Positions 14,203 through 31,654 of a stretch of DNA of 32,000 nt are shown here, one piece after another. The stretch's first letter is position 1; the number at the start of each line of letters is the position of its first letter. Source of the stretch: Candidatus Babelota bacterium (GTDB taxonomy: Bacteria > Babelota > Babeliae > Babelales > Vermiphilaceae). Location: assembly GCA_039809905.1 (NCBI GenBank), contig JBDHVY010000001.1:600001-632000 (forward strand), given 5' to 3'. Under the pieces are notes generated by a model. It made no database searches and was not told where the DNA came from. It saw only the letters and a program-made list of their open reading frames with translations. A program made the translations under genes and the position numbers.

Positions 14203-14207
14203 CTATC

Positions 14208-14777: not shown

Positions 14778-16408
14778 GAAGGCTCCTCATTACCAACTAA
14801 GGTTAGTTTCATAGTAAATTGTGGCATTTCCGGTGATTCAATTGGTCGAAGTATCTTTGATTGTTCTAGTTCGCGTTCAAATTCCTTGAGTGCTTCACTA
14901 TCTCGCACTTCAGCTTTTAGTGTTAAAATTCCGTCAGCTATATTGATTTGTTCAACCTTGAGATCAATTTTTTTTCTATCAATCTTTGAGGATAATTCGA
15001 GCAAATATTGCAAAAATGATGCGCGAGATTGATGAGAGAAAGCAAACCATCTTTTTTGTAATTCTTCCATTTCTTGATTTGCATCCTCAATAACATCATC
15101 ATCTAATGTTTTTGGATTTTCTAAAGTATTGAAAGTTGCAGTAAGAGCATCAAGTGCTTGTTTTTCAGAAATATGCGCAACTTCTTTTAATTTGCTTGTT
15201 TGAACATAATAGTGTGTGATCAGAGTGGCAAATATAGTTATGGTCAGAACAATAAGAACAATTAATTGCTTAAGAAGCAATGAATCGCTTTGTGTTATAA
15301 ATTCTTTCTGTGCAAGATTGTAATCAACGGTTATGGCAAGAGGCAATGTGGCGCTTACGCTAATGGCGTTAAAGGGAGTAATAAGATTGCCATTTTTTAT
15401 CGTAGATGGTGGATCTTGTATTGTTTCTTCAGCAGTAAAGAGTTCGCAACTTAATCCTGTTTTTTGTGCAATAAAAGGTACCAAGCCTTTAATAATGGAG
15501 CCACTACCAAGGAAAATAATCTTTGTTATAGGTCGGCGATTTAATAATTGTGCATTGAAAGAATTTAAGGTAAAGCTAACTCCATCCCACCATTCGGAAG
15601 TATTTTTTTGTATTGTTGATGAATGTTCAGCATTTTCAGTTTGCTCAAGCCCAAATCGTAATAAGTAGTCTACTGTTTCTTGAAGACTCTTATTAAGTTC
15701 TTGAGCAATTTGTTTGGTGAGAGCGCTAATACCTTTTGGTAATGTACGTACTGTTTTTAATTGTCCATCAACCATAAACGCAATAGCAGTTGAATGACCG
15801 GTTATATTAATTAAAGCGGTTCCACCTTCTAAGTTTTTATATGCACTAATGGATTTATATAATCCATAGATGGATATCATATCGATAGTAATAACTTCTG
15901 GTCGTATGCCTATTGCTTCAAAAAGTGCTATGTGTTGAATAATATGTTGTTTTTGAACAGCAGTTACTAAAATTTCAGAACTTTTTTCTTCAGGAATTTG
16001 CCTGGTTATAATAAAATCTATTGCTGCATCACGCAAAGAAAAAGGTAAAAGAGGTTCTATTTCAAACCCTATTACCATGCTTATTTTATCTCGAGAAGTA
16101 AAAGGAAGTTTTAGTTCTTTAAATACAACAACAGAACTTGCCAGTACGGTATGAATTTCATCATACGAACCTATTTTGGCAAAAATGGCTTTTAAAGCAG
16201 GTGATGTTGGATCAATATCTTCTTCTGATACCTCTTCTGATATCTTTTCTTCAACAATAAGTTCAATAGTGCTGGTTGTTCCGGTAATGCGTGTTTTTGT
16301 AGCAATAATTTTTGTTTTATTAATCTCAACAGCAACAACTATTTTGGTAAAAAGATAATAGGATTTTATTTTTTCTGGCAACAATACGTCTTTAATGAAT
16401 GTGCTCAT
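14774..16408 (-). CDS. PilM-like actin-fold domain fused via one TM helix to a PilN/GspL-type periplasmic domain (GspL-like architecture)
   Basis: The N-terminal ~370 aa resembles PilM/FtsA-type ATPase folds (VVVFKELKLPF, EIEPLLPF, ITIDMISIYGL, ALINITGHSTAIAFMVDG, IIFLGSGSIIKGL). Next comes a TM helix LLLKQLIVLIVLTITIFATLITHYY, then a ~150-aa coiled-coil/periplasmic part. There is a strong SD (AAGGAGG) and an ATGA overlap with the upstream secretin (16405-16408). Confidence 0.75.
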   Translation of the reverse strand: MSTFIKDVLLPEKIKSYYLFTKIVVAVEINKTKIIATKTRITGTTSTIELIVEEKISEEVSEEDIDPTSPALKAIFAKIGSYDEIHTVLASSVVVFKELKLPFTSRDKISMVIGFEIEPLLPFSLRDAAIDFIITRQIPEEKSSEILVTAVQKQHIIQHIALFEAIGIRPEVITIDMISIYGLYKSISAYKNLEGGTALINITGHSTAIAFMVDGQLKTVRTLPKGISALTKQIAQELNKSLQETVDYLLRFGLEQTENAEHSSTIQKNTSEWWDGVSFTLNSFNAQLLNRRPITKIIFLGSGSIIKGLVPFIAQKTGLSCELFTAEETIQDPPSTIKNGNLITPFNAISVSATLPLAITVDYNLAQKEFITQSDSLLLKQLIVLIVLTITIFATLITHYYVQTSKLKEVAHISEKQALDALTATFNTLENPKTLDDDVIEDANQEMEELQKRWFAFSHQSRASFLQYLLELSSKIDRKKIDLKVEQINIADGILTLKAEVRDSEALKEFERELEQSKILRPIESPEMPQFTMKLTLVGNEEPS

Positions 16409-18993
16409 ACTTGTACCTCCTTATCAGGCAAAAATTGAGCAAGAGATAATTGTGTCCGTTTCTTATTATGCATAGTTTCTATAAGATTCTGATGAGCTGT
16501 GCTCACTATTTTTTCTGGTACATCAACAGCAGGTTCATTTGGCGCAATGCTTTCTTCTTGTTGAATTATCACAGCTTGTTCTTTTTTTGCTTGCCGTTCA
16601 AAAATAAGGCCTTCAACTGATTTTTTAGCTCTGTCAGCTTTATCCTGGAAGAAGAGACGATGAATAGGATCACGATTGACGGCTGTAGTATCCATATAAT
16701 TAATCGTAGCTTGATAATCCTCAATGTGTTCACGCGTGAATGATTTCATATCTTCTCCCGCATTTGATTCAATAATGCGTGTAGAAATAAGTACCAAAAG
16801 ACTTTGTTTAATATTTATTTTACGTTTGTTTTTAAAAAACCAACCAATAATAGGAATGTCTCCTAATACAGGAACTTTTGTTTCTATATTTTGTATATTG
16901 TTTCTAATTAAACCACCAAGAGCAAGAACTTCTTTGTTCGCCACAATGGCATGAGTAACAATTTCTCTGGTGTTTTGTGTTGCACTGGTCGGATCGTTTG
17001 GATCAGCAAATTCATTAATCAGAATGCGAATGGTTAGGCCAATCATGCCATCAGAATTAATTTGTGGTGTGATAGTAACTTCAAGCAATGCGTTATCTGC
17101 ATCAAAAGCATTTACGGTGTTTGATGTGCTTGCGCTGCTTGATGCTCCGGTAATAACTTCTTCTGATACGATACGGCGTTGTTCACCAATAGAAACGGTT
17201 GCTTTGGAATTATTGGTTGCAAGTATAAACGGATTTGCTACCACTTCTGTATCAGTAATTGATTGAAGTGCTTGAAAAGCTCCCCATACGCCAAATGCAT
17301 CTCTGCCAAGAGTTAAGAACGATGTTCCTGGTACTGATCCTTGCACAAGATTAATGAGATTACCAAGAAGCCGTTGCGCTCCTGTTGTTGCATCAGGATT
17401 AGTTACGATAGTTGAAGTACCATACATTCCTGATGTTTGGAATTTAATATTATTGCCAAGAATACCATTCGGACCAGGTTCTTTAGTTCGTATTTGTGCA
17501 CCAAGACTTTTTGTATCAGTAAGGTCTACTGATGCAATAAGAACTTCAATAGCTGCTTGTGGTTGTTTTGCATCAAGCTGTCTAATAATTTTTTCTGCTT
17601 TTAGATAGTCATCATAATGGCCTTTAATAATGATGCGATTAGTTTCTGGTTCGGCAATAAATACCATTGGCCTCATGTATTGATCAGTACCACGTACACC
17701 ACCAAATTCTCGTTCTTTTGTTCCCGCACCAAATGACGTAACATCTGTCATAAGTTGAGCAATGGTTTTAGCATCAGCATATTTCAGTTGATATGTGTAA
17801 AGTGGTGAATAGGCTTGATCAAGTTCAATATCAACATATTTTACGATAAAATCTTCAATTTTTTTAATTGCGTTTTTTGGTCCGAGTAAGATGAGCGTAT
17901 TTGTTCGCGGATCAGAAATAATGCGTGTATTTTCTGGAAAGAAAAGAGAAGTCGGTTGTTTTTTAGTGAAAAAACGTGATGATGTATCTTCTTTAGGCAG
18001 CAATTCTTGATACAAATTTTTTACGGTATCTGCATCAGCATTGCGGAGTTTAAGCACAGACATAGATTCTGGAATACTGACTTTATCAAGTTCTTTAACG
18101 ATAGCCATCAACATTTTGATATTGTAGGCTTTATCAGTCAGTATAAATCCTTTGTGTTCTCTGAGTGCAATAAGACCTTGTGAACTACTGCTTCGCAGAG
18201 GCCCGACGATTTCCATAATAGTATCAACTGATGCATTTTCTAAGAAATAAACATAGCGAATTAATTCATCGTTATCAGGCAATAATTTATAATCGACACC
18301 AATAAACGTTGGCAATGGAGCTTTTCGTGCTGATTCTATTGTGGTAATTCTAAAAATTTTCGGATCTGCTTGAGGGGTGATTGCAAAGCCAGCTATATCA
18401 ATAAATGTGACAAATAAATTCCACGTTTCTTTTTTAGAAAGAGGATTATTTGTTTTGAATGATATTTTATTATTTTTTATTGATTTTTTACCCTGAGGTA
18501 GTGGAGATATTGCATCATCACTTATGAAGGTAATTTCAAAAATATCTTCAATTTGTTTCACAAAGTTTTGAAGATCAGCATTTTCAAAATTAAGTTCTAT
18601 ACTAACTTCTTCATCTTCTTCGTCTTGTATAGCAAGAGGCATTTCAACAGGTTGTGTTGCTTTATCAATGGCAGCAGGTTTTTTAGGATCTACAAAAGGA
18701 TCAGTGTATTGTTGTATTGGTCGCTGATCTAATCCATTGTTCATTTGAGATGTCTCAGCAGATTTCGGTGCCTTATCGTTGGTTGGTTTTTTTGTGGTGA
18801 AAGAAGTGCTTGCCCTGCCTGCGGTTGGAGCTGTAGCTATTGGGCTGGTATAAGCCTCAATATTCATGTGAGTATTAACGCTTTTATTTGCTGCTTTTTT
18901 TTTGCGGTAGCGTTTTCGACTTCCTGTTTCTGTTATGCTCATAACAGTGGCAAGAATAAAAACAAGAGAGAGATGAACTTTATATTTATTCAT
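16405..18993 (-). CDS. gspD: Secretin A (GspD-type: signal peptide, ~105-aa low-complexity linker, N0-N3, secretin domain, 119-aa C-terminal extension)
   Basis: N0-like segment ELNFENADLQNFVKQIEDIFEITFI. Several N1-type modules are present. Secretin-domain motifs are AIEVLIASVDLT, ANPFILATNNSKATVSIG and VPVLGDIPIIGWFFKNKRK. It lies directly downstream of the GspC-like gene. Confidence 0.9.
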   Translation of the reverse strand: MNKYKVHLSLVFILATVMSITETGSRKRYRKKKAANKSVNTHMNIEAYTSPIATAPTAGRASTSFTTKKPTNDKAPKSAETSQMNNGLDQRPIQQYTDPFVDPKKPAAIDKATQPVEMPLAIQDEEDEEVSIELNFENADLQNFVKQIEDIFEITFISDDAISPLPQGKKSIKNNKISFKTNNPLSKKETWNLFVTFIDIAGFAITPQADPKIFRITTIESARKAPLPTFIGVDYKLLPDNDELIRYVYFLENASVDTIMEIVGPLRSSSSQGLIALREHKGFILTDKAYNIKMLMAIVKELDKVSIPESMSVLKLRNADADTVKNLYQELLPKEDTSSRFFTKKQPTSLFFPENTRIISDPRTNTLILLGPKNAIKKIEDFIVKYVDIELDQAYSPLYTYQLKYADAKTIAQLMTDVTSFGAGTKEREFGGVRGTDQYMRPMVFIAEPETNRIIIKGHYDDYLKAEKIIRQLDAKQPQAAIEVLIASVDLTDTKSLGAQIRTKEPGPNGILGNNIKFQTSGMYGTSTIVTNPDATTGAQRLLGNLINLVQGSVPGTSFLTLGRDAFGVWGAFQALQSITDTEVVANPFILATNNSKATVSIGEQRRIVSEEVITGASSSASTSNTVNAFDADNALLEVTITPQINSDGMIGLTIRILINEFADPNDPTSATQNTREIVTHAIVANKEVLALGGLIRNNIQNIETKVPVLGDIPIIGWFFKNKRKINIKQSLLVLISTRIIESNAGEDMKSFTREHIEDYQATINYMDTTAVNRDPIHRLFFQDKADRAKKSVEGLIFERQAKKEQAVIIQQEESIAPNEPAVDVPEKIVSTAHQNLIETMHNKKRTQLSLAQFLPDKEVQV

Positions 18994-19008
18994 ATTTTTT
19001 TACTCAAT

Positions 19009-20115
19009 TCAACTGCTACTGTGGGTTGCCCGAGCACCTTTTTGAAACATTAATTGGTGATCTGCTTTTTTCATTTTATCAACGGTAGGAGCAAAAGCAT
19101 ATTGTTGTTGTTTTATAGTCTCATTTTTTTTGTGTAAAAGAAAAGCTGTTTCCTGTTTTTCAGTATTATTGAGAGACTCTTCTTCCTTTGTAGTAAAGTC
19201 TTCTAAGGTATAAACGAGGGTAATATCTCTATTTTTACGCATTAATTTTATGGTTATTGTGTTGCCAATTTTGAGTGAAGTAATGTTTTTATAGATTGCA
19301 AGCCGCTCTTCTGTTGTTTGTGCCGGAATACCATTTATAGAAAGTATTATATCACCATTTTGCAATCCTATTAAGCCGCCAAATGGAGATTTATTCATAA
19401 GGCCTATACGCAATCCTACACTTTTTCCTTGTTGATATGCTGTTGTTGCATTCAAAAGCTCAATGCACTCAGTCAAACTTTTGACTTGTTCTATAAATGA
19501 TTCAGGATTAATGAGATAAGTACTATTTCCTGTTTTTTTAACAACAGTATCCCATTCATGTGCAATATTATAGACTGGATCAGTTTTTGCATCTTGTTCT
19601 CGTAAATAAAGCACTTCTTGTTGTCCATTTAAACGCAAGAAGATAACTTTATTTTTAAATATTCGTATAAGTTGTGAATCTTGAATAAGATCACCAACTT
19701 TATAGGTACCTTCTTGTGTTGTTTTATTATCTTGAATCATTGCCCTATTTTTTGAATCATTAGAGCTTACAACAATAATACCTTTCAGTGTTATTTGAAG
19801 TGGATCAAGAAATTCTGGTTCGGCAATAGCAGGTATTATTATTTTTTGTTGAGCTGGAGGAGCAGGAAAAGGAATAACTGTTTCAGATTGTTTTACCTGT
19901 GGAATTTCTTTTACATAAGTGCCAAAAAGATCATCTTCATAAATTTTTTTGATATTGATAGCAACTTTTTGTTCTTTGCGTGGAGCAACTTCTTCTGCCT
20001 CAAGATCTTCTGATTTTGGTCGAGAAATTTTAACAGATGACACATAAATAAATGCAAAGATGACAAGGACTAAAGAAAGTAGTCCAAGATTTATAATCCA
20101 AAATGGTTGTTTCAT
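19009..20115 (-). CDS. gspC: GspC-like protein (N-terminal TM anchor, HR-like secretin-interaction segment, C-terminal PDZ domain)
   Basis: TM helix FWIINLGLLSLVLVIFAFIYV. HR-like segment is LQITLKGIIVVSSNDSKNRAMIQDN...YKVGDLIQDSQLIRIFKNKVIFLRLNGQQEVLYL. PDZ-like segment is GLRIGLMNKSPFGGLIGLQNGDIILSINGIP...TIKLMRKNRDITLVY. SD AAGGAA lies upstream. Confidence 0.75.
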   Translation of the reverse strand: MKQPFWIINLGLLSLVLVIFAFIYVSSVKISRPKSEDLEAEEVAPRKEQKVAINIKKIYEDDLFGTYVKEIPQVKQSETVIPFPAPPAQQKIIIPAIAEPEFLDPLQITLKGIIVVSSNDSKNRAMIQDNKTTQEGTYKVGDLIQDSQLIRIFKNKVIFLRLNGQQEVLYLREQDAKTDPVYNIAHEWDTVVKKTGNSTYLINPESFIEQVKSLTECIELLNATTAYQQGKSVGLRIGLMNKSPFGGLIGLQNGDIILSINGIPAQTTEERLAIYKNITSLKIGNTITIKLMRKNRDITLVYTLEDFTTKEEESLNNTEKQETAFLLHKKNETIKQQQYAFAPTVDKMKKADHQLMFQKGARATHSSS

Positions 20116-21842: not shown

Positions 21843-22715
21843 ATGAAACAATTGATAATACCCGTATTTGCGCTTCTATCTACTATTTTTCAGGCACAAA
21901 GCATGGAAATTTGTGATGAGACAAAAAAATCTGAAAAAGATAGTTTAAATGCAAAAAGTAAATATCCGAATTACAACTCACTTTCAAATAGGAGTAATAA
22001 TTATTCGAAAGCAGAGGATCTGAAAATTTTTTTGAAAATAACTGCACAAGAACTTATCCCTGATGTTCAAAACCGTATTGCAACCAAATTTATACAGCTG
22101 TATTTTTCAAACACTTCTCTGAGTTGCGCCAAGTTAAAACCTCTGGAGTTATTGCATTTTGTATCTAAGGTTCAAAATATTTGTCCAATAAAAATTGGTA
22201 ATAAAATATTTGAATGGAAAGATATAATTGTCTTAACAAAAAAACAACAGGAAAAACTTTTTGTTGTAGGAAATCCTCACTATCTTTATACATGCTTAAC
22301 CGGCTTTGATAATAATGTTATTGAAGCACCAAATGATTGTTGCACAAAAACTGTGTATTGTTTACCCCAATATTGTTGTGGAAAAATGGCTCCCGATATA
22401 AAACTTCTAGAAGATCAGCCAGCGCATATCAAAAAAAATCTTATTGTTCATACTGATGATTATTCGGCTGTATGTTGTCAATGCATTCCTGCTTGTACGG
22501 CTGGATTTTGTTTGTTATATCCTGTGCTTGGTGTTGCTAATGGTTGTGCAATTTCTTTTTGTTCGACAACATTATCATCATGGGTGTGGTGGTTGCCTAT
22601 GGGATTCTGGCCTACTTGTGGGGGGCTTTTTCTTCTAAAGAGATTTTTGCTAAGAGCAAAAAACGGTTCTTGTTGTTCAAACGAACATGATTTACATGAA
22701 AGAAGATTTGAATAA
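21843..22715 (+). CDS. Cys-rich, hydrophobic-tailed secreted protein family, member 1 (290 aa)
   Basis: SD AAAGGGA lies upstream. Signal peptide is MKQLIIPVFALLSTIFQAQS|ME. Shared family motifs are LIPDVQNRI, PIKIGNK..EW, LTKKQQEKL and QPAHIKKN. CC/CxC clusters give about 16 Cys in the last 140 aa. The C-terminal region has two hydrophobic segments. Confidence 0.7.
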   Translation: MKQLIIPVFALLSTIFQAQSMEICDETKKSEKDSLNAKSKYPNYNSLSNRSNNYSKAEDLKIFLKITAQELIPDVQNRIATKFIQLYFSNTSLSCAKLKPLELLHFVSKVQNICPIKIGNKIFEWKDIIVLTKKQQEKLFVVGNPHYLYTCLTGFDNNVIEAPNDCCTKTVYCLPQYCCGKMAPDIKLLEDQPAHIKKNLIVHTDDYSAVCCQCIPACTAGFCLLYPVLGVANGCAISFCSTTLSSWVWWLPMGFWPTCGGLFLLKRFLLRAKNGSCCSNEHDLHERRFE

Positions 22716-22724
22716 TAAAAACTA

Positions 22725-22781
22725 AAAATGATCGTGGTATTCAGCTGAGTATGTTATACAAGGATTCTCAGAAAGAATGGG
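22725..22781 (+). pseudogene. Direct repeat copy B: relic of a dcd 3' end (no upstream gene body)
   Basis: In the dcd-equivalent frame it reads NDRGIQLSMLYKDSQKE, against NNRGIQPSMLYKDFQKE in dcd. The dcd stop position is TGG here. It lies immediately upstream of the next gene's ATG (22788). Confidence 0.75.
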
Positions 22782-22787
22782 AAAATA

Positions 22788-23237
22788 ATGCGTAATAATT
22801 TGTATGTGGTACTAGGGCTTTGGATAATTTTTATTGGTAATGAATCTTTAATTGCGATGCATGAATCGATAAAAGTAAAAATAGAAAATTTGAGAATAGC
22901 TCATGTAGCAGAAATACGACAGCATGAAAAAGGGTGTAGTGACTGTCTTGTTGATCAAGCCTGTGGTAGATCAGAAATTGCGCAAAAATTTACAAAACAA
23001 GTTGGTGAGTTGGTATTAAATGCCGGAGATCTAGTGACTGATCAAGAAAAATTAAATCATGCCTACGGAAAGTTGCTTTATCCTCAACGAAAAGAAGTTA
23101 TTAAAAAAATGATTAGTGAAGGTCAACATCCAAACAATATAGTATATCAGCTAAATGAAGAAACTCCTTTGAAGAAAGCAGTTAAATTTGAAGATGAAGA
23201 ATTTATTCGGTTTTTGCGTGAACATGGTGCTGATTAG
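22788..23237 (+). CDS. Small signal-peptide protein with a single C-terminal ankyrin-like repeat (149 aa)
   Basis: N-terminus is MRNNLYVVLGLWIIFIGNESLIA|MH. The C-terminal ...ETPLKKAVKFEDEEFIRFLREHGAD fits the ANK consensus (TPLh.A...g..e.v.fLl.hGAd). Confidence 0.55.
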   Translation: MRNNLYVVLGLWIIFIGNESLIAMHESIKVKIENLRIAHVAEIRQHEKGCSDCLVDQACGRSEIAQKFTKQVGELVLNAGDLVTDQEKLNHAYGKLLYPQRKEVIKKMISEGQHPNNIVYQLNEETPLKKAVKFEDEEFIRFLREHGAD

Positions 23238-23243
23238 ATAAAT

Positions 23244-23267
23244 CTGCTAAGCAAGGCCCTTGAAACA
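23244..23267. terminator. GC-rich hairpin between convergent genes (probable bidirectional terminator)
   Basis: Stem aggccctt (23244-23251) pairs with aagggcct (23260-23267) across an 8-nt loop. There is no clear U-tract on either side. Confidence 0.5.
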
Positions 23268-23283
23268 TCAAGGGCCTATTAAC

Positions 23284-25143
23284 TTAGCAGAGGTATTTAG
23301 TAATAATATCTTTGAATGATTGGTTTTCAACAAAAAAGTCTCGTATATATTCATATAATGGCTGAGATATATGATTAAGCACAGAAGTATTTTCTTTTTT
23401 TGCTCTGAATAATTGTATTAATGCATAGAAATCAACAAAATTCATGTTTTTTGACAAATCAACAAGAGGGATATTTTCTGTATCCGTAATCAGTTCTGTT
23501 GTTATTGATTTGTATTTATCAAACGTTGTTATTAAAGATCTTCCGTTGTTTGTCATTCCTACCCCCCTAATAGATGGTTCTGCAAAATCAATGGTGCCGA
23601 CGCAGTTGCCAGTTGTGTGATTATATAATTTAACGCAACTAGAGGCACAGCCATTGTTTGTTGCTATGCAGGCAATCGGCGAATGTGGAATTGAGCATGC
23701 AGCTGCATAGATATTTTCGTCTTCTTTTCCCTCTTGTGTTGCCGTTTTGCTTAAAAAAGCCCCTGAAAGAAGATCAAAAAAGAATGTTGCGTATTGTGTT
23801 GAAATAGCAACAATATTTTGTTGAGGGTAGTTAAAGGTAATAGTTGCTTCAGCAGAACGTTTTGTAGGAATTTTAATTGATTGTAATTCTTTAATATTAT
23901 TTAGATTGCTCGTGTCCCATATCATAAATATGTGACCTTCAAATTTCCGATGTGCAAGGCAACCAATAAGTCTTGTATCATTATAATTAAAGGTTAGTTC
24001 TAATGGCCATGATTGAGAAAGAGCAGATTCTCCACTAGGCAACTTTAAAGTATTGACTACTTTTTTCTTTTGAAGAGAAAATAATTCTACTTCTCCTGGT
24101 TTTCCTGATGCAAGAATTGTTGATGCATTATTAAAACAAGGTGCTGTATTAAAGTTACAAGCTGGAACAATGATTGTATCTGATAAATAGTCATTATCAG
24201 AATCATCCAAACAGGTGAGCATAAATTTGCTGTTTTGCTGTCCTATCATAGCATAAGAGCTAGTAACAAGCCATTTGCCATCAGGGCTCAATGAAGCCCT
24301 ATTAATGAGTGAGCCATGGGTAATAGCTGGAATTTCCAAAGTTCCCTGAATTATACCAAATTCATTATCTTTTTTTTCAACAATAAAGTGATTTGTTTTT
24401 GGAGAAAGAAGTATTAAAGGTAGTTCTTCTTGTTCACTATTTTTTACTAAAACGAGACTCGGTTGTCCATTAAAATTATGTATATTAAGATCTTTAACCT
24501 TAGGCATATCGATAGGGCTGCCTCTTTGAGAAATTTTTCTCAAACAATCGTCTTGATTGTAAGAATACGCTGGTGCTTGTATGATTGATTGATTGGTTAT
24601 ATTATCGATAATCATACAAGATTTAAGATGCACAAAAAGTTGATTGAATTGTTTAGGGCAATATTTTTTAATAATACGGTTTAAGACAACAGGGTGATCG
24701 AGCCATTGAACAGCAAGCTGCGCTGTTAAGCGTAAAGCATGTAATTTTTTTGTACCATCACTCAATTGTGCACCTGCAGCGATAGTGAGTACGCGTTGTT
24801 TATCAGGGGTAAGTTTTTTAAAATATTTTGAAAAAGATTTTGATTGTTGATGACCGATATTTTTATTGAGCGATGTATCAAAAAGAGTTATTTCTTCTGT
24901 TGTAATGTTGGGAATGATAATAGGATTTTTTTTATTCTGAGAATAATAGCATTCACATAATGTGTTTGATTCTTTTTTTACTTTCCATTTTTCAATTGAA
25001 TAGGTTGATCCGTCATCTAGTTGAAGATTTATTTTGTTTTTTGTTGTTGGCGCATCCATGGAAATAAGAGAAGCTGAGTATATTAATAGAAAAATGATAA
25101 CGTAATAATCAATTGACCAAAACTGAGCAAAAGTATAGCGCAT
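23284..25143 (-). CDS. Signal-peptide protein: possible Skp1/BTB-POZ-like N-terminal segment plus probable beta-propeller (619 aa)
   Basis: SD AGGATGAAG lies upstream, 30 nt downstream of mlaF on the same strand. N-terminus is ...YYVIIFLLIYSASLIS|MD. Blade-like starts are SLSPDGKWLVTSS, LTFNYNDTRLIGC, ITFNYPQQNIVAIST and GMTNNGRSLITT. The N-terminal segment KINLQLDDGSTYSIEKW...NPIIIPNITTEEITLF is discussed under findings. Confidence 0.6.
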   Translation of the reverse strand: MRYTFAQFWSIDYYVIIFLLIYSASLISMDAPTTKNKINLQLDDGSTYSIEKWKVKKESNTLCECYYSQNKKNPIIIPNITTEEITLFDTSLNKNIGHQQSKSFSKYFKKLTPDKQRVLTIAAGAQLSDGTKKLHALRLTAQLAVQWLDHPVVLNRIIKKYCPKQFNQLFVHLKSCMIIDNITNQSIIQAPAYSYNQDDCLRKISQRGSPIDMPKVKDLNIHNFNGQPSLVLVKNSEQEELPLILLSPKTNHFIVEKKDNEFGIIQGTLEIPAITHGSLINRASLSPDGKWLVTSSYAMIGQQNSKFMLTCLDDSDNDYLSDTIIVPACNFNTAPCFNNASTILASGKPGEVELFSLQKKKVVNTLKLPSGESALSQSWPLELTFNYNDTRLIGCLAHRKFEGHIFMIWDTSNLNNIKELQSIKIPTKRSAEATITFNYPQQNIVAISTQYATFFFDLLSGAFLSKTATQEGKEDENIYAAACSIPHSPIACIATNNGCASSCVKLYNHTTGNCVGTIDFAEPSIRGVGMTNNGRSLITTFDKYKSITTELITDTENIPLVDLSKNMNFVDFYALIQLFRAKKENTSVLNHISQPLYEYIRDFFVENQSFKDIITKYLC

Positions 25144-25173
25144 GCTTCATCCTGTTTTTTTAGAAAAATAGTT

Positions 25174-25968
25174 CTATGCCTTATCTTTAAAGTGCGGAAT
25201 TTCTTGAGAAATTGGTCCCTTCAAATCACCACGAATAAATTGATGAATGTAAGGATTATCAGATTCCCATATTGTTTGAGCATCACCAAAATATTGAATT
25301 TTGCCTTCGTGAAGCAAAGCAACTTTATCAGCGTACTTAAATGTCTCTACATCATGTGAAATAACGACAGACGTTAATTTGAGTTTTTTTTGCATATCAA
25401 ACATAAGTTCATGAATCACGTGAGACGTGATTGGATCAAGACCTGTGGTTGGCTCATCATATAAAATAATTTCTGGATTGGTGACAAGTGTGCGTGCCAA
25501 TCCTACTCGTTTTCTCATACCACCTGATAATTCAGAAGGGTATTTGTATAAGTTTTCTTCTGATAATTGTACCAGCGCCAATTTTTCTTTAACAATAGGC
25601 AAAATCTCTTTTTCTGATTTGCCTTGTTCAATAAGTGTGATGCCAATATTTTCATAAATATTTAATGAATCAAGAAGTGCCGCAAACTGGAAAACATATC
25701 CAAACTTACTGAAACAATCATCAAGATCTTTGCCTTGCAACTGAGTAATATCCGCTCCATCAATAATAATGCTGCCTGATGTTGGTTGAATAAGACCAAT
25801 AACTTGTTTAAGTAAAACAGATTTACCTTCACCAGACCGACCAATAATGATAGTCATCAGCCCTTCAGGAATATCAAGATTAACTCCACGCGTAACCCAA
25901 TGACCATCAAACTCTTTTTGCAGATCGATGATTTTAATTTTAGTTTTATGTGAAGTTTCTTTTTTCAT
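25174..25968 (-). CDS. mlaF: ABC transporter ATP-binding protein, MlaF-like
   Basis: Walker A GRSGEGKS, signature LSGGMRKRVGLARTL, Walker B IILYDEPTTGLD, H-loop ISHD. It lies immediately downstream of the MlaE-like permease. Confidence 0.85.
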   Translation of the reverse strand: MKKETSHKTKIKIIDLQKEFDGHWVTRGVNLDIPEGLMTIIIGRSGEGKSVLLKQVIGLIQPTSGSIIIDGADITQLQGKDLDDCFSKFGYVFQFAALLDSLNIYENIGITLIEQGKSEKEILPIVKEKLALVQLSEENLYKYPSELSGGMRKRVGLARTLVTNPEIILYDEPTTGLDPITSHVIHELMFDMQKKLKLTSVVISHDVETFKYADKVALLHEGKIQYFGDAQTIWESDNPYIHQFIRGDLKGPISQEIPHFKDKA

Positions 25969-25979
25969 AATAACTCTTT

Positions 25980-26759
25980 TTACAAGTGCTCAAGTAATTT
26001 GGTCAAGAAATAATTAGAGATCAAAATTAATATTGAACTTGCAACTACCGATTGAGTTGTTGCAGTACCAACACCTCGCGCACCACCATGAGTATACATT
26101 CCTTTATATGTTCCTACCCATGAAAGAATAAGCCCAAAGATTGCAGCTTTTTTCAATCCACCGTAAATATCTGTTAATTCAACATAATTACGTATACTGC
26201 TTTCATAATCTTCTGGACTTAGTTCAAGCACGTAAACACATACAATGTAACCGCCAATGATACCAAAAAACATAGAAAATAAGGTTAAAAAAGGTAAAAT
26301 TATGGTGCTTGCAAGAATACGAGGGACAACAAGATACTGAAAAATATTGATACGCAAGGTCGTCAGCGCATCAACTTGCTCGGTAATAATCATAGTACCA
26401 ATTTCTGCCGTAATAGCTGATCCAGCGCGACCAGTTACCATTAATGCAGTAAGCACAGGTCCCAATTCTCTGATTAATCCTAATGCGACGATTGCACCGA
26501 TAAATTGTTCTCCACCAACGCGTTGAAAGCCAATATAGGTTTGTAATGCAAGAACCATTCCCGTAAATAATCCCGTCAAAACAACAATACTCAAAGATTC
26601 AACACCAATCCGATTCATTTGGAAAAATGTTTTAGAAACTTTGAGTTTTGTGCTGAAAAATGTTTTAACTGCTTCCAGAAAAAAAAGAGTAAAACTACCT
26701 AAAGCTGTACATGTATTAATAACCAAAGCACCCAAAAAAGTAGCAAATTGAATAAACAC
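25980..26759 (-). CDS. mlaE: ABC transporter permease, MlaE/YrbE family
   Basis: GRAGSAITAEIGTMIITEQVDALTTL is the hallmark MlaE motif. There are about 5 TM segments. GTG start with GAGGT as SD. Confidence 0.85.
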   Translation of the reverse strand: MFIQFATFLGALVINTCTALGSFTLFFLEAVKTFFSTKLKVSKTFFQMNRIGVESLSIVVLTGLFTGMVLALQTYIGFQRVGGEQFIGAIVALGLIRELGPVLTALMVTGRAGSAITAEIGTMIITEQVDALTTLRINIFQYLVVPRILASTIILPFLTLFSMFFGIIGGYIVCVYVLELSPEDYESSIRNYVELTDIYGGLKKAAIFGLILSWVGTYKGMYTHGGARGVGTATTQSVVASSILILISNYFLTKLLEHL

Positions 26760-26786
26760 ATTGAACCTCGTGCTTATGCTCTTTTT

Positions 26787-27110
26787 TTATTCTTCATCAC
26801 TGGTGATTGGCGCAGAAGCTGGTTGTGGGAGTGTTTGTTGAGCCATAGTTTTGGTGTTGATATATCTAAATTTTTTGTGCTCTGTTGATTTCATTAAAGA
26901 AAGTATCATTGCGCCTACCATAAAAATAGATCCAAGAACCCAGGTAATTTTTTGAAAAAGATCTTGTCCGCCACCACCGCCAAAAATCATTTGAGCGCCG
27001 CCACCCAGGCCACCTAGTCCAAGGCCGCCTTTGCCTTTTTGCATAAGAATAATAAGAACGAGTAAAAAGCAGTTAATTAGGTAAAGAGTGAGTAAAAATC
27101 CATATAACAT
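26787..27110 (-). CDS. secG: Preprotein translocase subunit SecG
   Basis: 107 aa with two TM helices flanking the Gly-rich loop LMQKGKGGLGLGGLGGGAQMIFGGGGG. SD AAAGGAAA lies upstream. Confidence 0.85.
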   Translation of the reverse strand: MLYGFLLTLYLINCFLLVLIILMQKGKGGLGLGGLGGGAQMIFGGGGGQDLFQKITWVLGSIFMVGAMILSLMKSTEHKKFRYINTKTMAQQTLPQPASAPITSDEE

Positions 27111-27263
27111 AATTTTCCTTTCATCTGAAGTGTCATAAATCTGAGTATAGCAGGTTTAAATTTTTTTGTAGTATTTTTAGATTTTGTCTATTTTTATAAA
27201 AATTATATAGTTTTTTGGAGTTACTCAAAGAGATAGTAGAGTTGTGGTAAAAAGGAGAAAGTC

Positions 27264-27878
27264 ATGAGAAAAAATGTGATGATAAGTTTGGTATTGTTGG
27301 CTATTACTCAAGCCTTACTTGCGTGCGAAGATAATAAAGTGTTAACGCCTGTTCTTCAGCAACCAAAAGAATTACCGACACCCTTGGTTATCGGCAACAA
27401 GGCAATAAGCCAAAGAAGGTTGTTAAAATTATCTGATGACCAACAAGAAGAACTTCATAGAATATCCCATCCAGGGACTATTGCACGGTGCTTTGGTTAC
27501 AATAGCCAGGTGATTTCTCCTCAAGATGTCAAAACAATTAATACTATGCCTGATTGGATAAGAAAAGATATGAAAGTTAAAGTTCTTACCGTAAATCATT
27601 CTTGTTGTGTTAGTGGCCCCGTTGACCGTCATGATAATTATACAGGAAAGGCTGCTGCACTCACAGGCATAGCATCGGGTCTTGCAGGTTGTGTTTTTTA
27701 TACGGTTATGTTTTTCGGCCCAAATTGTCCATGGAGTTTTTGTGCTATTCCAATAGCTGGCGTCCCTCCGATGTGCGCAGCCGGATGTGCAGAATGCAGC
27801 AGTTGTATATATCATCGCTATTATGCTGAACGACAAGAATACGCATATGCTGATCACAATGAAATTAGTAGTGAGTAA
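27264..27878 (+). CDS. Cys-rich, hydrophobic-tailed family, member 2 (204 aa; probable lipoprotein signal LLA|C)
   Basis: SD AAGGAG lies upstream. N-terminus MRKNVMISLVLLAITQALLAC has a lipobox-like end. Family motifs are PLVIGNKAIS, LSDDQQEEL and NTMPDWIRKD, then HSCC and a Cys/Gly-rich hydrophobic tail. Its 3' end overlaps the tpiA 3' end by 14 nt. Confidence 0.7.
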   Translation: MRKNVMISLVLLAITQALLACEDNKVLTPVLQQPKELPTPLVIGNKAISQRRLLKLSDDQQEELHRISHPGTIARCFGYNSQVISPQDVKTINTMPDWIRKDMKVKVLTVNHSCCVSGPVDRHDNYTGKAAALTGIASGLAGCVFYTVMFFGPNCPWSFCAIPIAGVPPMCAAGCAECSSCIYHRYYAERQEYAYADHNEISSE

Positions 27879-28605
27879 TAATTGAAAAAAATTGCTCAAA
27901 ATGAGTGCTCGCGTTGCCAATTAAAAAGCCATCAATGCGAGCTATTTTTTTTAATTGTGCAATATTTTTTTCATTAACGCTTCCTCCATACAATAATTGT
28001 GGAGTGTAATCAGGTGCATGTGATCCAATGATTTTTCTAATCCACGCAAAAACTTCTTCAAGGTAACTGTTTTCTGGGATAATGCCATTCCCAATTGACC
28101 ATATCGGCTCATATGCAATAATAAGACGCATATTTGTTGCAGATATATTTTCAAGAATTGGGTTTAGTTGTTCTTTCAATACGGTGAGCGTTGCTTTTGT
28201 TTTAAAATGTTCTTGAGTTTCTCCAATACAAATGATTGGTTGAATATTATTCTGAAGCAATAGATTTGCTTTTTCAATAATTACATCAGTTGTTTCGCCA
28301 AAATATATGCGCCGTTCACTGTGTCCCACAAAGCAATACGTAACACCTATTTCTGCTAATGATTGTGCAGATATTTCTCCGGTATAAGATCCCGATTCAT
28401 AGTGCGAACAATTTTGTGCACCGATTTTAATAGAGCTATTTTTTAATATTTCTATCATTGGTGCAAGTGCAATAAATGATGGACATAAAACAATTTCGGC
28501 ATTATTAGTGAGAATTTGTAGTTGTTTTAAATTATTTAAACAAAAATTTACGCTGTTGCCAAAGCTCATATTCATTTTCCAATTAGCGATATAAAGTGGC
28601 TTCAT
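27865..28605 (-). CDS. tpiA: Triosephosphate isomerase
   Basis: Catalytic motifs are ANWKMN (Lys), VGHSERR (His) and AYEPIWSIGNG (Glu), plus the GGSV phosphate loop. Confidence 0.93.
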   Translation of the reverse strand: MKPLYIANWKMNMSFGNSVNFCLNNLKQLQILTNNAEIVLCPSFIALAPMIEILKNSSIKIGAQNCSHYESGSYTGEISAQSLAEIGVTYCFVGHSERRIYFGETTDVIIEKANLLLQNNIQPIICIGETQEHFKTKATLTVLKEQLNPILENISATNMRLIIAYEPIWSIGNGIIPENSYLEEVFAWIRKIIGSHAPDYTPQLLYGGSVNEKNIAQLKKIARIDGFLIGNASTHFEQFFSIITHY

Positions 28606-28904
28606 TTTAAATCCTGATTTTTAGATAACGATAAAAAGATTATATGGTGATAGTAGCATACAATTTTTTTTATAAGGATTGTTTTTTACATAATTTTCGT
28701 TCTAATAATTGGTAAGTATTATAGTTTTATATTATCGATGAGGCGGAATGAAATTTACTTATATTGGTTTTTTAATATACTCTTTGTAGTTGCAAAAAAT
28801 AGTTTTTTAATTATAAAAATAAGGGAAAAATAAGATAAGATCTCATAATACATAATCGTCTATAAATACAAAGATATATAATTAACATCTTTTAAGGATT
28901 TCAT

Positions 28905-29414
28905 ATGCAAAAAAAATTGATGGCATTAAGTTTTATGATTTTTACTCTATTGAATAATTCTGTTGTGTATGCTTCACAAAAATCTTCAGACGGTGTAAAC
29001 GGGATAAAAGCTGCAGTTGTAATTGCTGGGCTTGGAACAATAACGGGAGCTGGAGCTAAAGCTACACAAATGAATCAAGACTATGCAAAAAATAAAAAGT
29101 CACCAGATTTTAAAATGCGTGCTACTAAGGCTGTTGGAGCTGCTGCGATACTAGTGGGCACTGATTTATTATTGGGTGATACTAAAAATACAAAGCAAAA
29201 TTTGGCTAAGTTAGCAGCATTCTCCGTTTCTTTGTTGGCTATTACTGACACAGCAGCTAATATTGTACGAGAATTACCAATAATAGGTGGTCTTCTTACT
29301 GATCCGGTTGATGAGCATGGTAAAGAACAAAAAGATTCTGGGGCTTATGCTCGTGGTCTTTTAGTGTATGTTCCACTACGTGAATTGGCACTTAAATGTG
29401 CAAACAATATTTAG
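28905..29414 (+). CDS. Hypothetical exported/membrane protein (169 aa, Ala/Gly-rich hydrophobic segments)
   Basis: SD AAGGA lies upstream. Signal peptide is ...LLNNSVVYA|SQ. A terminator follows. No domain recognised. Confidence 0.55.
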   Translation: MQKKLMALSFMIFTLLNNSVVYASQKSSDGVNGIKAAVVIAGLGTITGAGAKATQMNQDYAKNKKSPDFKMRATKAVGAAAILVGTDLLLGDTKNTKQNLAKLAAFSVSLLAITDTAANIVRELPIIGGLLTDPVDEHGKEQKDSGAYARGLLVYVPLRELALKCANNI

Positions 29415-29435
29415 AATAAAATAGCTGAAATTGTT

Positions 29436-29465
29436 AAAAAAGCCTTCTCACGAGAAGGCTTTTTT
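29436..29465. terminator. Bidirectional rho-independent terminator
   Basis: Stem agccttc (29441-29447) pairs with gaaggct (29454-29460). It is flanked by A5 upstream and T5 downstream and lies between convergent genes. Confidence 0.7.
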
Positions 29466-29475
29466 AATTTTGAGA

Positions 29476-29994
29476 TTATTGCGCAGAAAAATAAGCGTTA
29501 TATCGTTTAACATAATTGTCATGTATCATTTTACAATTATCACGGTCTTCTTGAGTAGAACTGTCTCTTGAACATAGTCCAAATTCTTTTATTTTGTCTT
29601 CAACATGCATACGATATTTTAATTCCTGATGTACAAGAAGTTGTCGTTGTTCTTCAGCATCGTTAGCATTGCGTTGAACTTCTGTTTTTTTTTCAAACAA
29701 AGTAAGAGCAACGTAATTCGGATCATTTTTTAATTCAAGATCTTTTATTTTTTTTTGTTTAGTGAGATTTTTTAATTCAGTATCTTCGTAATACATATCA
29801 ATTTGATGTGATATTATTGTTACAAGAATTCCAGATACGCAGGCAGATAATAGAGGATTTTCCTTTGCTGCGTTATTAATGCTTTGATATGCAGTTGAAA
29901 ATGGATTGCTGTAGATTTTTCCACTACATGCAAAAAGTAAAATAAGATGCAAAAATAATGGTAGTTTATTTTTTATGTGAGAAAAATTGAACAC
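29476..29994 (-). CDS. Hypothetical lipoprotein with coiled-coil region (172 aa from GTG start)
   Basis: GTG at 29994 is preceded by AAGGA and gives (M)FNFSHIKNKLPLFLHLILLFA|CSG, a classical lipoprotein signal with lipobox. The ATG-initiated ORF extending to 30054 adds 20 unlikely residues. Confidence 0.55.
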   Translation of the reverse strand: MFNFSHIKNKLPLFLHLILLFACSGKIYSNPFSTAYQSINNAAKENPLLSACVSGILVTIISHQIDMYYEDTELKNLTKQKKIKDLELKNDPNYVALTLFEKKTEVQRNANDAEEQRQLLVHQELKYRMHVEDKIKEFGLCSRDSSTQEDRDNCKMIHDNYVKRYNAYFSAQ

Positions 29995-30100
29995 AGTTAT
30001 TTTCCTTAGTGGATTTAATTTGATTAATACTGAATTTAATAGAAAATATATCATTTTTTAATAATATTGCACATGTATACAAAAAGGGTTTTGATGCATT

Positions 30101-30850
30101 ATGAAAATAAAAAAATATAAAATAGTATTGTTGCTAATGTCTTATGTTATATGCCATACGCAAAAATTATGCTGTATGACTCTTTCAGATCGTTTACATG
30201 GCAAGCGAAATGTTATAGCTGTTCAAGAATCTTTTCTGTGTTCTGGTAAGCATGGAGCATTTGCGGTTATTCCATTAGACCTACAGGGAAAAATTGTTAA
30301 AAATATATTAACTCTTTTGGTTTATCAAGGTAATAATTTTGAAAGATATATTGATAGAGAAGAACTGGATAAATGTATTTTAACACAAAATCCAATTGTG
30401 TTGGGCCATAAGAATATTCAGGACTTTTGTTCTGTGGTAAATCAATGTACCAATCAAAAAATCCACAAATGCTCATTGCATGATATGTATCTTTTGCCAT
30501 TTTCTCAAAGAAATATAATTACCAATATTGGTTCGTTATCTTTTTGTTCTTTTCCTAAAGAATTATTTGAAGATGAATATGATGCAATAAAAAATATGCC
30601 ATTGGAGAAAGGTCTTACCATAAATGTTGTTCCTCGATCTCGATTGGTATATTTATTGAATAAAATTGAGATAGTCAGTTGTATATGTGCTGGTGGAGGA
30701 TTTGTTGGTGTTTGTTACTTGAGATTAATGGATCCTCTTTCGATGCTTTTTCTCATTCCAGCAAAAATTTGTTTTGCGGGAACTGGATGTGCTTTTTTGG
30801 CAGAGGGATTAAAAAACTGTTTTATAGATGTTAAAAAGGTTCATTTATAG
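30101..30850 (+). CDS. Cys-rich, hydrophobic-tailed family, member 3 (249 aa)
   Basis: N-terminal hydrophobic segment is KIVLLLMSYVICHTQKLCC|M. Family motifs are VIPLDLQGKI, PIVLGHK, SFPKELFE and NMPLEKG, then VSCICAGGG and a two-segment hydrophobic tail. Confidence 0.65.
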   Translation: MKIKKYKIVLLLMSYVICHTQKLCCMTLSDRLHGKRNVIAVQESFLCSGKHGAFAVIPLDLQGKIVKNILTLLVYQGNNFERYIDREELDKCILTQNPIVLGHKNIQDFCSVVNQCTNQKIHKCSLHDMYLLPFSQRNIITNIGSLSFCSFPKELFEDEYDAIKNMPLEKGLTINVVPRSRLVYLLNKIEIVSCICAGGGFVGVCYLRLMDPLSMLFLIPAKICFAGTGCAFLAEGLKNCFIDVKKVHL

Positions 30851-30919
30851 AATGAGTTTTCCAGAAGAAGTTTTATTAGGTGCTAGAAATAAAAAATGTA
30901 TTTTTAAAAGAAGTAAAAT

Positions 30920-31654
30920 ATGAAATATAAAATGAGTACACAGCTATTTTGTTTATTGAGCACTATTATTTTTTTTAGCTTGCATGCAGCTGATAATCAA
31001 ATATTGCCACTGCTTGCTTATCAAAACAGTAATTCGTATCAATCGTTATTACCTTTTAAAAAAAATACAAAAACTAAGATAGTTACTGCAGAATCTCAAT
31101 CTTTGTGTTTTCCTAAAGAAATACAGCAAAAAATCATGAAATTAAAGCTATTGTTGTGTTGGAAGGATGAGATTAATTTTTTAGAAAGCATTTCTCCTGT
31201 AAAAATAGGAGATGCGGAATTATGGGCAATTGACTTATGGAGACTTTCGTGCCAAGAGAGAGAGTGTGCATTAAGTTATCGTGACAAGATCACTTTTAAT
31301 CTGGAAGAATGTGATATGTTAAAAAAGATTATTCCTAAAGAAATGCAAACTGGTCTGGTGATACACAGATTTGCCAATAATGATGAATTATATCTGGACT
31401 GTTGCGATATTCCTGGTGGATGCGTGCTATTGCGTTGTATGGTTCCTCCAGCATTCGGAGCAGTGGTAATTGGATTGGGAGGTTTGATAGCTTGGGGAGT
31501 GGCTTCTCATCCAGGAACAGCTTTGAACCAAACACTTACAATTTTAGGAGGTATTGGCTTAGGAATAACAGTTGCTGGTTGGGGAGTAGAATATTGGAGA
31601 TATCGTTGGATGTTGGAACACAATACAGTAGCGACATCATTACAAGATGTTTGA
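30920..31654 (+). CDS. Cys-rich, hydrophobic-tailed family, member 4 (244 aa)
   Basis: Signal peptide is ...LLSTIIFFSLHA|AD. Family motifs are CFPKEIQQKI, PVKIGDAELW, LSCQERECAL and IIPKEMQTG, then LDCCDIPGGC and a Gly-rich two-segment hydrophobic tail. Confidence 0.65.
   Translation: MKYKMSTQLFCLLSTIIFFSLHAADNQILPLLAYQNSNSYQSLLPFKKNTKTKIVTAESQSLCFPKEIQQKIMKLKLLLCWKDEINFLESISPVKIGDAELWAIDLWRLSCQERECALSYRDKITFNLEECDMLKKIIPKEMQTGLVIHRFANNDELYLDCCDIPGGCVLLRCMVPPAFGAVVIGLGGLIAWGVASHPGTALNQTLTILGGIGLGITVAGWGVEYWRYRWMLEHNTVATSLQDV

Follow-up and report, generated by a model that had tools for sequence, protein, structure and literature searches.

We analyzed a window of 32,000 nucleotides (nt), which belongs to a 1.23-Mb contig of a Candidatus Babelota bacterium, and found that four of its genes, named here P1, P2, P3 and P4 (Table 1), very probably are paralogues of one undescribed protein family. 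Its members occur in a single clade with low GC content and small genomes, combine a five-part architecture, are gained and lost at particular slots of a syntenic region, and diverge rapidly. Where these proteins act is a separate matter: Sec export, escape from the inner membrane and insertion of a C-terminal helical hairpin into a host-derived membrane is our tentative first choice, at somewhat less than even probability.

Homology of the four proteins

For P1 and P2, the sequences leave the paralogous relationship certain: BLASTP aligned them over 134 residues with 27% identity (E = 7e-10), and both score highly with the final family profile described below (E = 1e-78 for P1, 4e-37 for P2). 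No other pair was significant in pairwise BLASTP; P1 and P4 shared two weak collinear segments (E = 0.011 and 0.15), and P3 gave nothing significant against P1, P2 or P4. Single-sequence database searches retrieved the orthologues P0002 (44% identical) and P0003 (38%) for P1, P0014 (46%) for P3, and for P4 only the protein itself. A further orthologue of P1 (P0018/L082) is 45-46% identical; P0014, the orthologue of P3, is syntenic in the related locus L076 and carries ...ISA followed by MEF.

A profile of six sequences left P3 and P4 unlinked (hmmsearch E = 15 and 0.18; hhalign P = 0.09 and 0.018, respectively). With a profile of P1, P2, P0002 and P0003, HMMER was run exhaustively against 1.84 billion representative proteins and yielded 39 clusters at E <= 1e-3, 22 of them at E <= 1e-10; all are 93-330 amino acids (aa) long, and the full-length sequences among them have a common architecture. 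With the profile of these 39 clusters, P4 (E = 1.4e-6) and P3 (E = 2.6e-5) were detected among 136 open reading frames (ORFs), the next unrelated ORF following at 0.28. When P3 or P4 was shuffled, the real score was reached neither by any of 1,000 full shuffles nor by any of 1,000 shuffles in 20-residue blocks. The final profile of 45 sequences was obtained by adding eight members from metagenome loci; P1 and P2 are inside this profile, P3 and P4 outside. It defines the family, which we label IGNK-HIKK, and membership means a significant match of the soluble domain. P3 and P4 were its top non-trivial matches: among 2,917 ORFs, hmmsearch gave E = 6e-8 for P4 and 2.8e-4 for P3, and hhalign gave P = 2.7e-8 (probability 95%) and 1.5e-5 (probability 80%), respectively. 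As the hhalign alignments cover the soluble domain alone, the score is not driven by the hydrophobic tail. In addition, P4 matches the family member at 3417-4220 of locus L085 by BLASTP (E = 9e-5), and six of the eight best non-self matches in a single-sequence phmmer search with P4 are family members.

Alternatively, P3, or P3 together with P4, might be unrelated to the other proteins and resemble them merely by leader and tail architecture and by chance short motifs in AT-rich coding sequence, which would leave P1 and P2 as the only true paralogues. This explanation agrees with the missing BLASTP matches of P3 and with the values of the six-sequence profile; moreover, phmmer with the soluble part of P3 found no family member at E < 0.3, and hmmsearch and hhalign register the motif PIVLGHK of P3 differently. 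The two registers would agree if about 18 residues were inserted between PIVLGHK and SLHDMYLLPFSQRNII. We consider the alternative improbable in view of the 45-sequence profile scores, the hhalign alignments that leave out the tail, the failure of all 2,000 shuffles and the BLASTP match of P4. Furthermore, the P3 orthologue possesses the family's ...A-then-ME motif, and in the related locus L082 the P3/P4 slot holds a clear family member. On balance, the sequence comparisons make P4 almost certainly a family member and P3, for which the evidence is confined to the profile level, a likely one.

An earlier note on this DNA, written from the letters alone, had proposed that these ORFs, whose coordinates and lengths it gave exactly, are paralogues with six shared features. 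All motifs quoted there could be located in the four translations, and the profile-profile comparison, which might have separated the proteins, instead links P4 and P3 to P1 and P2; P3 is the weakest of the four. One detail needs amendment: the L-x-x-x-Q-x-E-x-L helix described for three proteins is present in these, and P3 possesses it as well in a divergent form (LLPFSQRNII, following the insertion). Further paralogues were found neither in the rest of the window nor in the 9.7 kb past its 3' end.

Architecture and predicted structure

Leaders and transmembrane (TM) segments were assigned by means of hydropathy and the -3/-1 rule. The leaders consist of a basic n-region and a hydrophobic h-region, and 27 of 29 members have G, A or S at position -1. 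In most long forms, the sequence [MA]-E-[IV]-x-x-E-T-K directly follows the predicted signal-peptidase site; likewise, the predicted signal peptidase I (SPase I) site of P1 directly precedes the conserved [MA]-E-[IV] motif (aa 21-28, the mature N-terminus, correspond to window positions 21903-21926). Judged by these residues, the leader end is a typical SPase I site adjoined by an unusually conserved mature N-terminus, which might constitute a second sorting signal. A helical "LPxEIxxxI" module comes next in the long forms (P1, P3, P4) and is missing from the P2-type short forms.

The core of about 90 residues has the consensus CPLxIGNKxFxWxDLIxLxxxQQxxLxxIGNP...C.TG.DN...L..MPxHIKKxLxV. In P1 its elements are, in this order, a PIKIGNK hairpin, an LTKKQQEKL helix, GNP, C-x-TG-x-DN and a QPAHIKKNLIV strand. 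The P-h-h-h-G-x-K motif reads PIKIGNK in P1, PLVIGNK in P2, PIVLGHK in P3 and PVKIGDA in P4, and 37 aligned sequences show hardly any variation at residues G119, K121, G154, P193 and I196 (P1 numbering). The (M)P-x-x-I-K-K motif and CC or CxC clusters occur as well. The bilobed C-terminus that the earlier note had described is present in all four proteins: the last 60-90 residues of each contain two hydrophobic Cys/Gly-rich segments. In the 45 members, this module consists of two helices rich in Cys, Gly, Ala and Ser, which are separated by a loop with a median length of about 6 residues (19-mer windows). A basic stretch follows and then a conserved tail, of which there are several versions: many long forms have KYxVDx[DE]K[FY]L, the P1 subgroup has ERRF and P2-type proteins have CxECxxCxYHRYCxERE. 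The latter looks like a metal-binding or acylation cluster; its motif C-x-E-C-x-x-C-x-Y-H-R-Y is also found in the members P0034, P0042 and L003_202. The order of leader, core, double module and basic stretch is common to P1-P4. Cysteine accounts for 4.1-6.6% of the residues in P1-P4; across the family, the C-terminal 95 residues contain 8.2% cysteine and the remainder 3.6%, compared with 0.58% in 12 housekeeping proteins of the window.

An AlphaFold2 (AF2) model of P1 based on a four-sequence alignment was unusable, with a predicted local distance difference test (pLDDT) score of 35. With 37 aligned sequences, the mean pLDDT rose to 75 and the predicted template modeling score (pTM) was 0.60; pLDDT values were about 90 for residues 60-160 and 180-205, with about 87-95 in the parts 101-160 and 181-200, and 57-71 for residues 161-180. 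The model is an α/β domain, in which helices pack round the small β-hairpin PIKIGNK and short strands. It continues with the long helices 215-240 and 252-275 (pLDDT 55-73) and ends with a short C-terminal strand (residues 285-289).

Comparison with known families

The earlier note had not recognized the family, and neither did any library consulted here. Pfam contains no match at E <= 1 for P1-P4 and none at E <= 0.1 for 37 members. An NCBIfam scan of P1-P4 returned nothing at E <= 1 beyond unrelated noise, PHROGs and PADLOC scans of P1-P4 gave no match, and the family profile found nothing credible among the PDB sequences. A Foldseek search with the AF2 model retrieved no relative from PDB or BFVD (best E = 2-3), and a literature search on Cys-rich membrane effectors of Dependentiae brought up no description of the IGNK-HIKK family. 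The conserved domain is thus without detected relative, and the family is undescribed in the libraries and the literature searched.

Two partial similarities deserve mention. The helix "LPxEIxxxI(h)xx(h)" matches the first 15 positions of the F-box; however, the remainder of the F-box (L...VCK.W) is absent from the family, and the family helix is located behind a signal peptide. Since a scan of ten N-terminal segments gave a sole weak and partial match (E = 0.17, model positions 2-16 of 47) and none of 37 full-length members matched, an F-box identity (PF00646 / PF12937) was rejected; the full three-helix match of about 45 aa is absent. The C-terminal module resembles those of CYSTM (PF12734) and plant PCM proteins in being hydrophobic and Cys-rich, with CC or CxC flanking or inside a helix. 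In contrast to the family, which has a signal peptide, two helices and no Pfam match, CYSTM is found in small eukaryotic cytosolic proteins without signal peptide, where it forms one helix at the very C-terminus.

Copy number, synteny and evolutionary rate

A metagenome scan with a 13-sequence alignment was used to find further loci of the family. All family-bearing contigs with enough flank to judge are syntenic with the window, and the stretch between dcd and uvrC harbors one to five family copies in fixed slots (Table 1). P2, for example, has syntenic orthologues at 14026-14634 of L003 and 14955-15605 of L082. The MlaE proteins of these loci are 91-93% and the TIM proteins 60-74% identical to those of the window, which indicates that the family-bearing loci form one fairly narrow clade; a TpiA scan of species-representative genomes revealed no close relative, the best match being 44% identical. 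These data bear out a lineage-specific family of changing copy number, as had been supposed, and make the term "expanding" more precise: there are a few fixed slots in which copies are gained, lost and rapidly diverging.

For a rate comparison of the window with L082, slot-matched family members were contrasted with flanking proteins. Amino-acid identity is 45% for P1 and 35% for P2, as against 74-96% for the flanking proteins. The number of non-synonymous substitutions per site (dN) is 0.53-0.66 for the family and 0.03-0.20 for its neighbors; the corresponding ratios to the synonymous value (dN/dS) are about 0.38 and 0.04-0.13, and are rough because dS is near saturation. At non-synonymous sites, the family diverges 3 to 20 times faster than its neighbors, which points to a role in host contact. 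More generally, the extreme divergence together with the change of copy number in a reduced genome favors a host-exposed location, be it by export or by surface display.

Membrane module and possible locations

The signal sequences and the C-terminal module support, at the level of sequence, predicted Sec export and anchoring via this module. In order to characterize the latter, Hessa-scale values were summed over 19-mers. The median is +3.6 kcal/mol for 80 family helices versus +0.3 kcal/mol for 27 bona fide TM segments of the same clade (Mann-Whitney p = 1.4e-4), which were taken from MlaE, SecG, an ABC permease, an MFS transporter, GspC, and PilO- and PilMN-like proteins. The single-anchor proteins among them (GspC, PilO-like, PilMN) have sums of -1.2 to -2.7. 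As to the charges, the 12 residues preceding helix 1 contain 47 lysines and arginines in total in 45 members, and the 15 residues following helix 2 contain 84, while all loops together contain 16. According to the positive-inside rule, charges on the flanks and not in the loop are misplaced for a hairpin with periplasmic ends. Marginal hydrophobicity and flanking charges therefore make the module a poor fit to an ordinary inner-membrane hairpin; the pattern fits either an exported anchor that inserts into host membranes like that of Inc proteins, or a type-I topology.

We infer three locations, in descending order of probability: export to a host membrane, a type-I anchor in the inner membrane, and a sorting signal for surface display. 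The first, which we favor tentatively, would proceed as follows. The protein would be exported by Sec, and helix 1 would fail to stop transfer; as the helices are too weakly hydrophobic and the loop lacks positive charges, the module may escape the inner membrane. The protein would then exit the cell via the adjacent machinery of the T2SS (type II secretion system) kind or in vesicles, and its hairpin would become inserted in a membrane of host origin, an α-helical hairpin being better suited to a host phospholipid bilayer than to a bacterial outer membrane. This would place the conserved domain on the same membrane face as the basic Cys-rich juxtamembrane flanks, functionally like chlamydial Inc proteins, with the flanking cysteines as candidate sites of S-acylation by the host. 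Fast divergence and copy-number change would then reflect adaptation to the host.

The preconditions of a T2SS substrate are present, namely Sec-type signal peptides and T2SS-type genes (GspD secretins, GspC); they are necessary and not sufficient. A precedent for weakly hydrophobic helices is given by translocated TM effectors from secretion systems of types III and IV (T3SS, T4SS), whose hydrophobicity lies just below the threshold of inner-membrane targeting (Krampen et al. 2018, PMC6110835), and the helices of the family are similarly near or below this level. In contrast to the family, these effectors lack Sec signal peptides and bypass the signal recognition particle and Sec; since the family enters Sec, any escape step would fall at the stage of stop-transfer.

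The likeness to chlamydial Inc proteins concerns three aspects. Their bilobed domain of two helices of about 20 residues with a very short loop, 45-60 aa in total, recurs in the family; charged or functional parts are in the flanks and not in the loop; and both are lineage-specific, multi-copy, fast-diverging families, for the family presumably likewise of an obligate intracellular bacterium. However, the family has a cleavable Sec-type signal peptide instead of a type III signal, its module is C-terminal and not N-proximal, it is strongly Cys-rich, it has no sequence similarity to any Inc Pfam family, and the window shows genes of the T2SS and not of the T3SS type. The proteins are not members of the Inc family.

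Several points weigh against export to a host membrane. A protein that has both a signal peptide and hydrophobic helices ends up by default in the bacterial inner membrane, and we know of no T2SS substrate that is an α-helical hairpin membrane protein. Release into the vacuole lumen would leave the termini luminal and the cysteines beyond the reach of cytosolic acyl-transferases, unless the membrane were crossed. The lipobox of P2 suggests that this protein is retained in the bacterial envelope. The Hessa values are crude, as they are plain sums of central-position values, and overlap those of the weaker polytopic helices, and the confidence of AF2 for the hairpin is low to moderate (50-73). 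Host localization and S-acylation are themselves inferred from sequence. That the proteins stay in the bacterial envelope is an equally ordinary explanation.

Such retention is what our second-ranked possibility describes: after cleavage of the signal peptide, the domain would remain periplasmic, the C-terminal module would anchor it in the inner membrane for some function in the envelope, and the cysteines would form disulfides or bind metal. Two forms are conceivable, a hairpin anchor, or a type-I protein in which helix 2 is the sole membrane-spanning element, with the basic cluster and the conserved tail in the cytoplasm and helix 1 as a Cys-rich segment next to the membrane. This possibility accords with the default stop-transfer behavior of Sec and with the P2 lipobox. 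The basic cluster after helix 2 resembles a stop-transfer anchor with a cytoplasmic tail, and the tails KYxVDxDKYL and CxECxxCxYHRYCxERE could be cytoplasmic sites of interaction or metal binding. Moreover, helices with sums of +3 to +8 on this crude scale also occur in several polytopic proteins of the inner membrane of the clade. On the other hand, the fastest evolution and the greatest variability in copy number among the genes of a reduced 1.2-Mb genome would be unexpected for a strictly periplasmic family, the helices of the family are far less hydrophobic than the single anchors of the organism, and the hairpin form breaks the positive-inside rule. The AF2 strand 285-289, which follows helix 2, might pack on the domain, although with low confidence in this region.

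A third and unlikely possibility is surface display. Here, the module and the basic cluster would act as a sorting signal similar to GlyGly-CTERM, PEP-CTERM or MYXO-CTERM and would keep the protein back at the inner membrane until a dedicated protease or transpeptidase cuts it and T2SS-type machinery transfers the domain to the bacterial surface, where it might be a variable adhesin or antigen. The order of signal peptide, domain, hydrophobic segments and basic cluster recalls that of proteins with such signals, which combine an N-terminal signal peptide with a C-terminal hydrophobic helix and a basic cluster and are processed by rhombosortase (GlyGly-CTERM) or exosortase (PEP-CTERM); MYXO-CTERM contains cysteine, too. 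The cargo of GlyGly-CTERM uses the T2SS, as exemplified by the rhombosortase substrate VesB, a T2SS cargo with a C-terminal TM anchor, and T2SS-type genes adjoin the cluster studied here. Rapid diversification would also fit surface exposure. However, known C-terminal sorting signals are tripartite motifs of 25-35 aa at the extreme C-terminus, whereas the module of the family is about 90 aa and thus roughly three times longer, has two helices instead of one and is followed by a conserved tail of 10-25 aa after the basic cluster. In addition, no C-terminal sorting-domain model of NCBIfam matches, and no gene for a sortase-like or other sorting enzyme was found in the window or near the family in related loci.

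A lead of a different kind bears on the proposed S-acylation. In the loci L077 and L085, family members adjoin a gene for a secreted homologue of eukaryotic-type palmitoyl-protein thioesterase (Palm_thioest, PF02089; Table 1), the two copies of which are 65.8% identical; it was not found in the window, L003, L076 or L082. The adjacency is an intriguing but weak pointer toward the host-membrane reading; its restriction to two syntenic relatives, with the gene missing from the window, counts against it. More speculative still than host-membrane insertion itself, and in our view rather doubtful, is the wider proposal that parasites of the Dependentiae type, whose export routes appear to be confined to Sec and a T2SS-like system, evolved their own Inc-like, Sec-exported effectors, with a hairpin in a host vacuolar or organelle membrane, S-acylated cysteines and a domain of novel fold engaging host factors.

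Genomic context

Besides the family, the window (GC content 34%) contains genes for CTP synthase (C-terminal part), endonuclease IV, AspRS and enolase, a block of genes of the T2SS and type IV pilus (T4P) type, MoxR, dcd, mlaFE, secG, tpiA, uvrC and eukaryote-like repeat proteins with leaders. Gene content and GC match the published profile of Dependentiae: in Babela, the T2SS is the only secretion system found (PMC4378268), and Chromulinavorax has a genome of 1.17 Mb with 33.7% GC, in which signal peptides are encoded by 44% of the coding sequences and carried by 78% of the ankyrin proteins (PMC6561590). The family is restricted to one clade whose gene content is like that of Dependentiae (TM6) parasites of protists and which probably is intracellular.

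Table 1. Positions of the P1-P4 genes, their parts, neighboring genes and related loci (positions without a locus name refer to the window)
Feature	Position	Strand	Remarks
P1	21843-22715	+	290 aa; typical full-length family member; start 18 nt past dcd
P1, predicted signal peptide	21843-21902	+	aa 1-20, ...FQAQS then MEI; from hydropathy
P1, LPxEIxxxI helix IPDVQNRIATKFIQLYF	22056-22106	+	aa 72-88; from family alignment; AF2 helix 73-87, pLDDT ~90
P1, conserved core domain	22185-22457	+	aa 115-205
P1, Cys/Gly-rich double hydrophobic module	22461-22637	+	aa 207-241, 247-265; AF2 helices 215-240, 252-275
P1, basic juxtamembrane stretch (KRFLLRAK), CC cluster, conserved C-terminal ERRF-E tail	22638-22712	+	
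P2	27264-27878	+	204 aa; short form without N-terminal LPxEI module
P2, predicted leader with lipobox L-L-A-C21	27264-27326	+	lipobox not kept in orthologues
P2, core domain (PLVIGNK ... LSDDQQEEL ... MPDWIRKDMKV)	27381-27578	+	
P2, double hydrophobic module and C-x-E-C-x-x-C-x-Y-H-R-Y tail motif	27651-27842	+	
P3	30101-30850	+	249 aa; probable divergent member; ~18-aa insertion after PIVLGHK
P3, double hydrophobic module IVSCICAGGGFVGVCYLRL / MLFLIPAKICFAGTGCAFL	30671-30799	+	
P4	30920-31654	+	244 aa; divergent member, this species only
P4, Gly-rich double hydrophobic module and basic EYWRYRW stretch	31451-31609	+	
T2SS/T4P-type block	11737-20115	-	~1.7 kb upstream of P1; same block in L003, L082
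GspD-like secretins, N0 domains	11737-14202 and 16405-18993	-	
PilO-like bitopic protein	14208-14777	-	189 aa
PilM-like protein	14774-16408	-	544 aa, C-terminal TM segment
GspC (T2SSC)	19009-20115	-	PDZ domain
WD40 β-propeller protein	4268-5482	+	N-terminal hydrophobic leader; WD40 E = 1.8e-30
Ankyrin-like protein	22788-23237	+	149 aa, leader; weak ankyrin matches
β-propeller-like protein	23284-25143	-	619 aa, leader; weak β-propeller matches
L003			dcd; two tandem P1-type genes; mlaFE; secG; yhcG; one P2-type gene
L082/L083			442-kb metagenome contig; five copies: P1-type after dcd, two P2-type before tpiA, one after tpiA, one before uvrC
L085			three tandem copies before tpiA
L090			one copy before tpiA, one after; possible third at contig end
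L076			P3 orthologue alone before uvrC; P4 not there
His-rich proteins	L082 17287-17682 and 17794-18231; L085 6039-6563	-	
Palm_thioest homologue (PF02089)	L077 1004-1909; L085 4970-5878	-	~301 aa, own N-terminal leader

The statement of the earlier note that the four genes are wedged between housekeeping genes holds roughly; P1 is followed by the ankyrin-like and β-propeller-like genes, and P3 adjoins P4. These two repeat-protein genes lie between P1 and mlaF and are not at that position in L082 and L003. P2 (+) and tpiA (-) have convergent 3' ends that overlap by 14 nt at 27865-27878, and the stop codons of the convergent genes P4 and uvrC are about 5 nt apart; neither arrangement leaves space for separate terminators. 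Three further leader-bearing proteins, which lack a Pfam match and are unrelated to the family, are encoded at 2257-4188 (+), 5530-6558 (-) and 11135-11542 (-). On account of its C-terminus ...LGLIYTF, the one of 643 aa among these resembles an outer-membrane β-barrel.

The slots of the relatives contain other variable genes. A YhcG/DUF1016 nuclease of the PD-(D/E)XK type is located between secG and the P2 slot in L003 (12847-13956), L076 (3813-4895) and L082 (13058-14131); as it is missing from the window, the region between secG and the P2 slot appears to be a general hotspot of insertion and deletion. In the tpiA-uvrC slot of L082 and L085, small His-rich proteins (Table 1) with runs like HHHGHHGHHGHHHHDH possess a leader and a C-terminal Gly/Ala-rich hydrophobic segment; the window has there instead two unrelated hypothetical membrane proteins of 169 aa (28905-29414) and 192 aa (29476-30054). 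The member P0035 (L079/L080/L081) is flanked by an AAA-ATPase_like gene (PF09820) and by a toxin-antitoxin-like pair of a nucleotidyltransferase and an NTase-substrate-binding protein, and the same AAA-ATPase_like/PDDEXK_9 gene is found upstream of mlaF in L076.

Implications

A lineage-specific, fast-evolving, exported membrane family in a host-dependent bacterium is a familiar kind of object; the distinctive trait here is that a Sec signal is combined with a C-terminal, Cys-rich, sub-threshold hairpin and inverted charges. To our knowledge, almost nothing is known about how Dependentiae (TM6) and similar uncultured parasites of protists remodel host membranes, and we know of no type III, IV or VI secretion system in Dependentiae. 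Most effectors proposed so far for this group belong to the ankyrin, WD40 or ubiquitin-related proteins and carry signal peptides. As the fastest-evolving element in a conserved syntenic region, the IGNK-HIKK family provides concrete candidates for the membrane interface between parasite and host. It is also a test case for the delivery of Sec-dependent, sub-threshold hairpins to host membranes. Its alignment could define a new domain family, and the family could be used as a clade marker in metagenomes. If the proteins are ordinary periplasmic anchors, the interest would be limited to a new domain of unknown function. If, however, insertion into host membranes is true, the family would represent an Inc-like strategy in a phylum without type III, IV or VI secretion.

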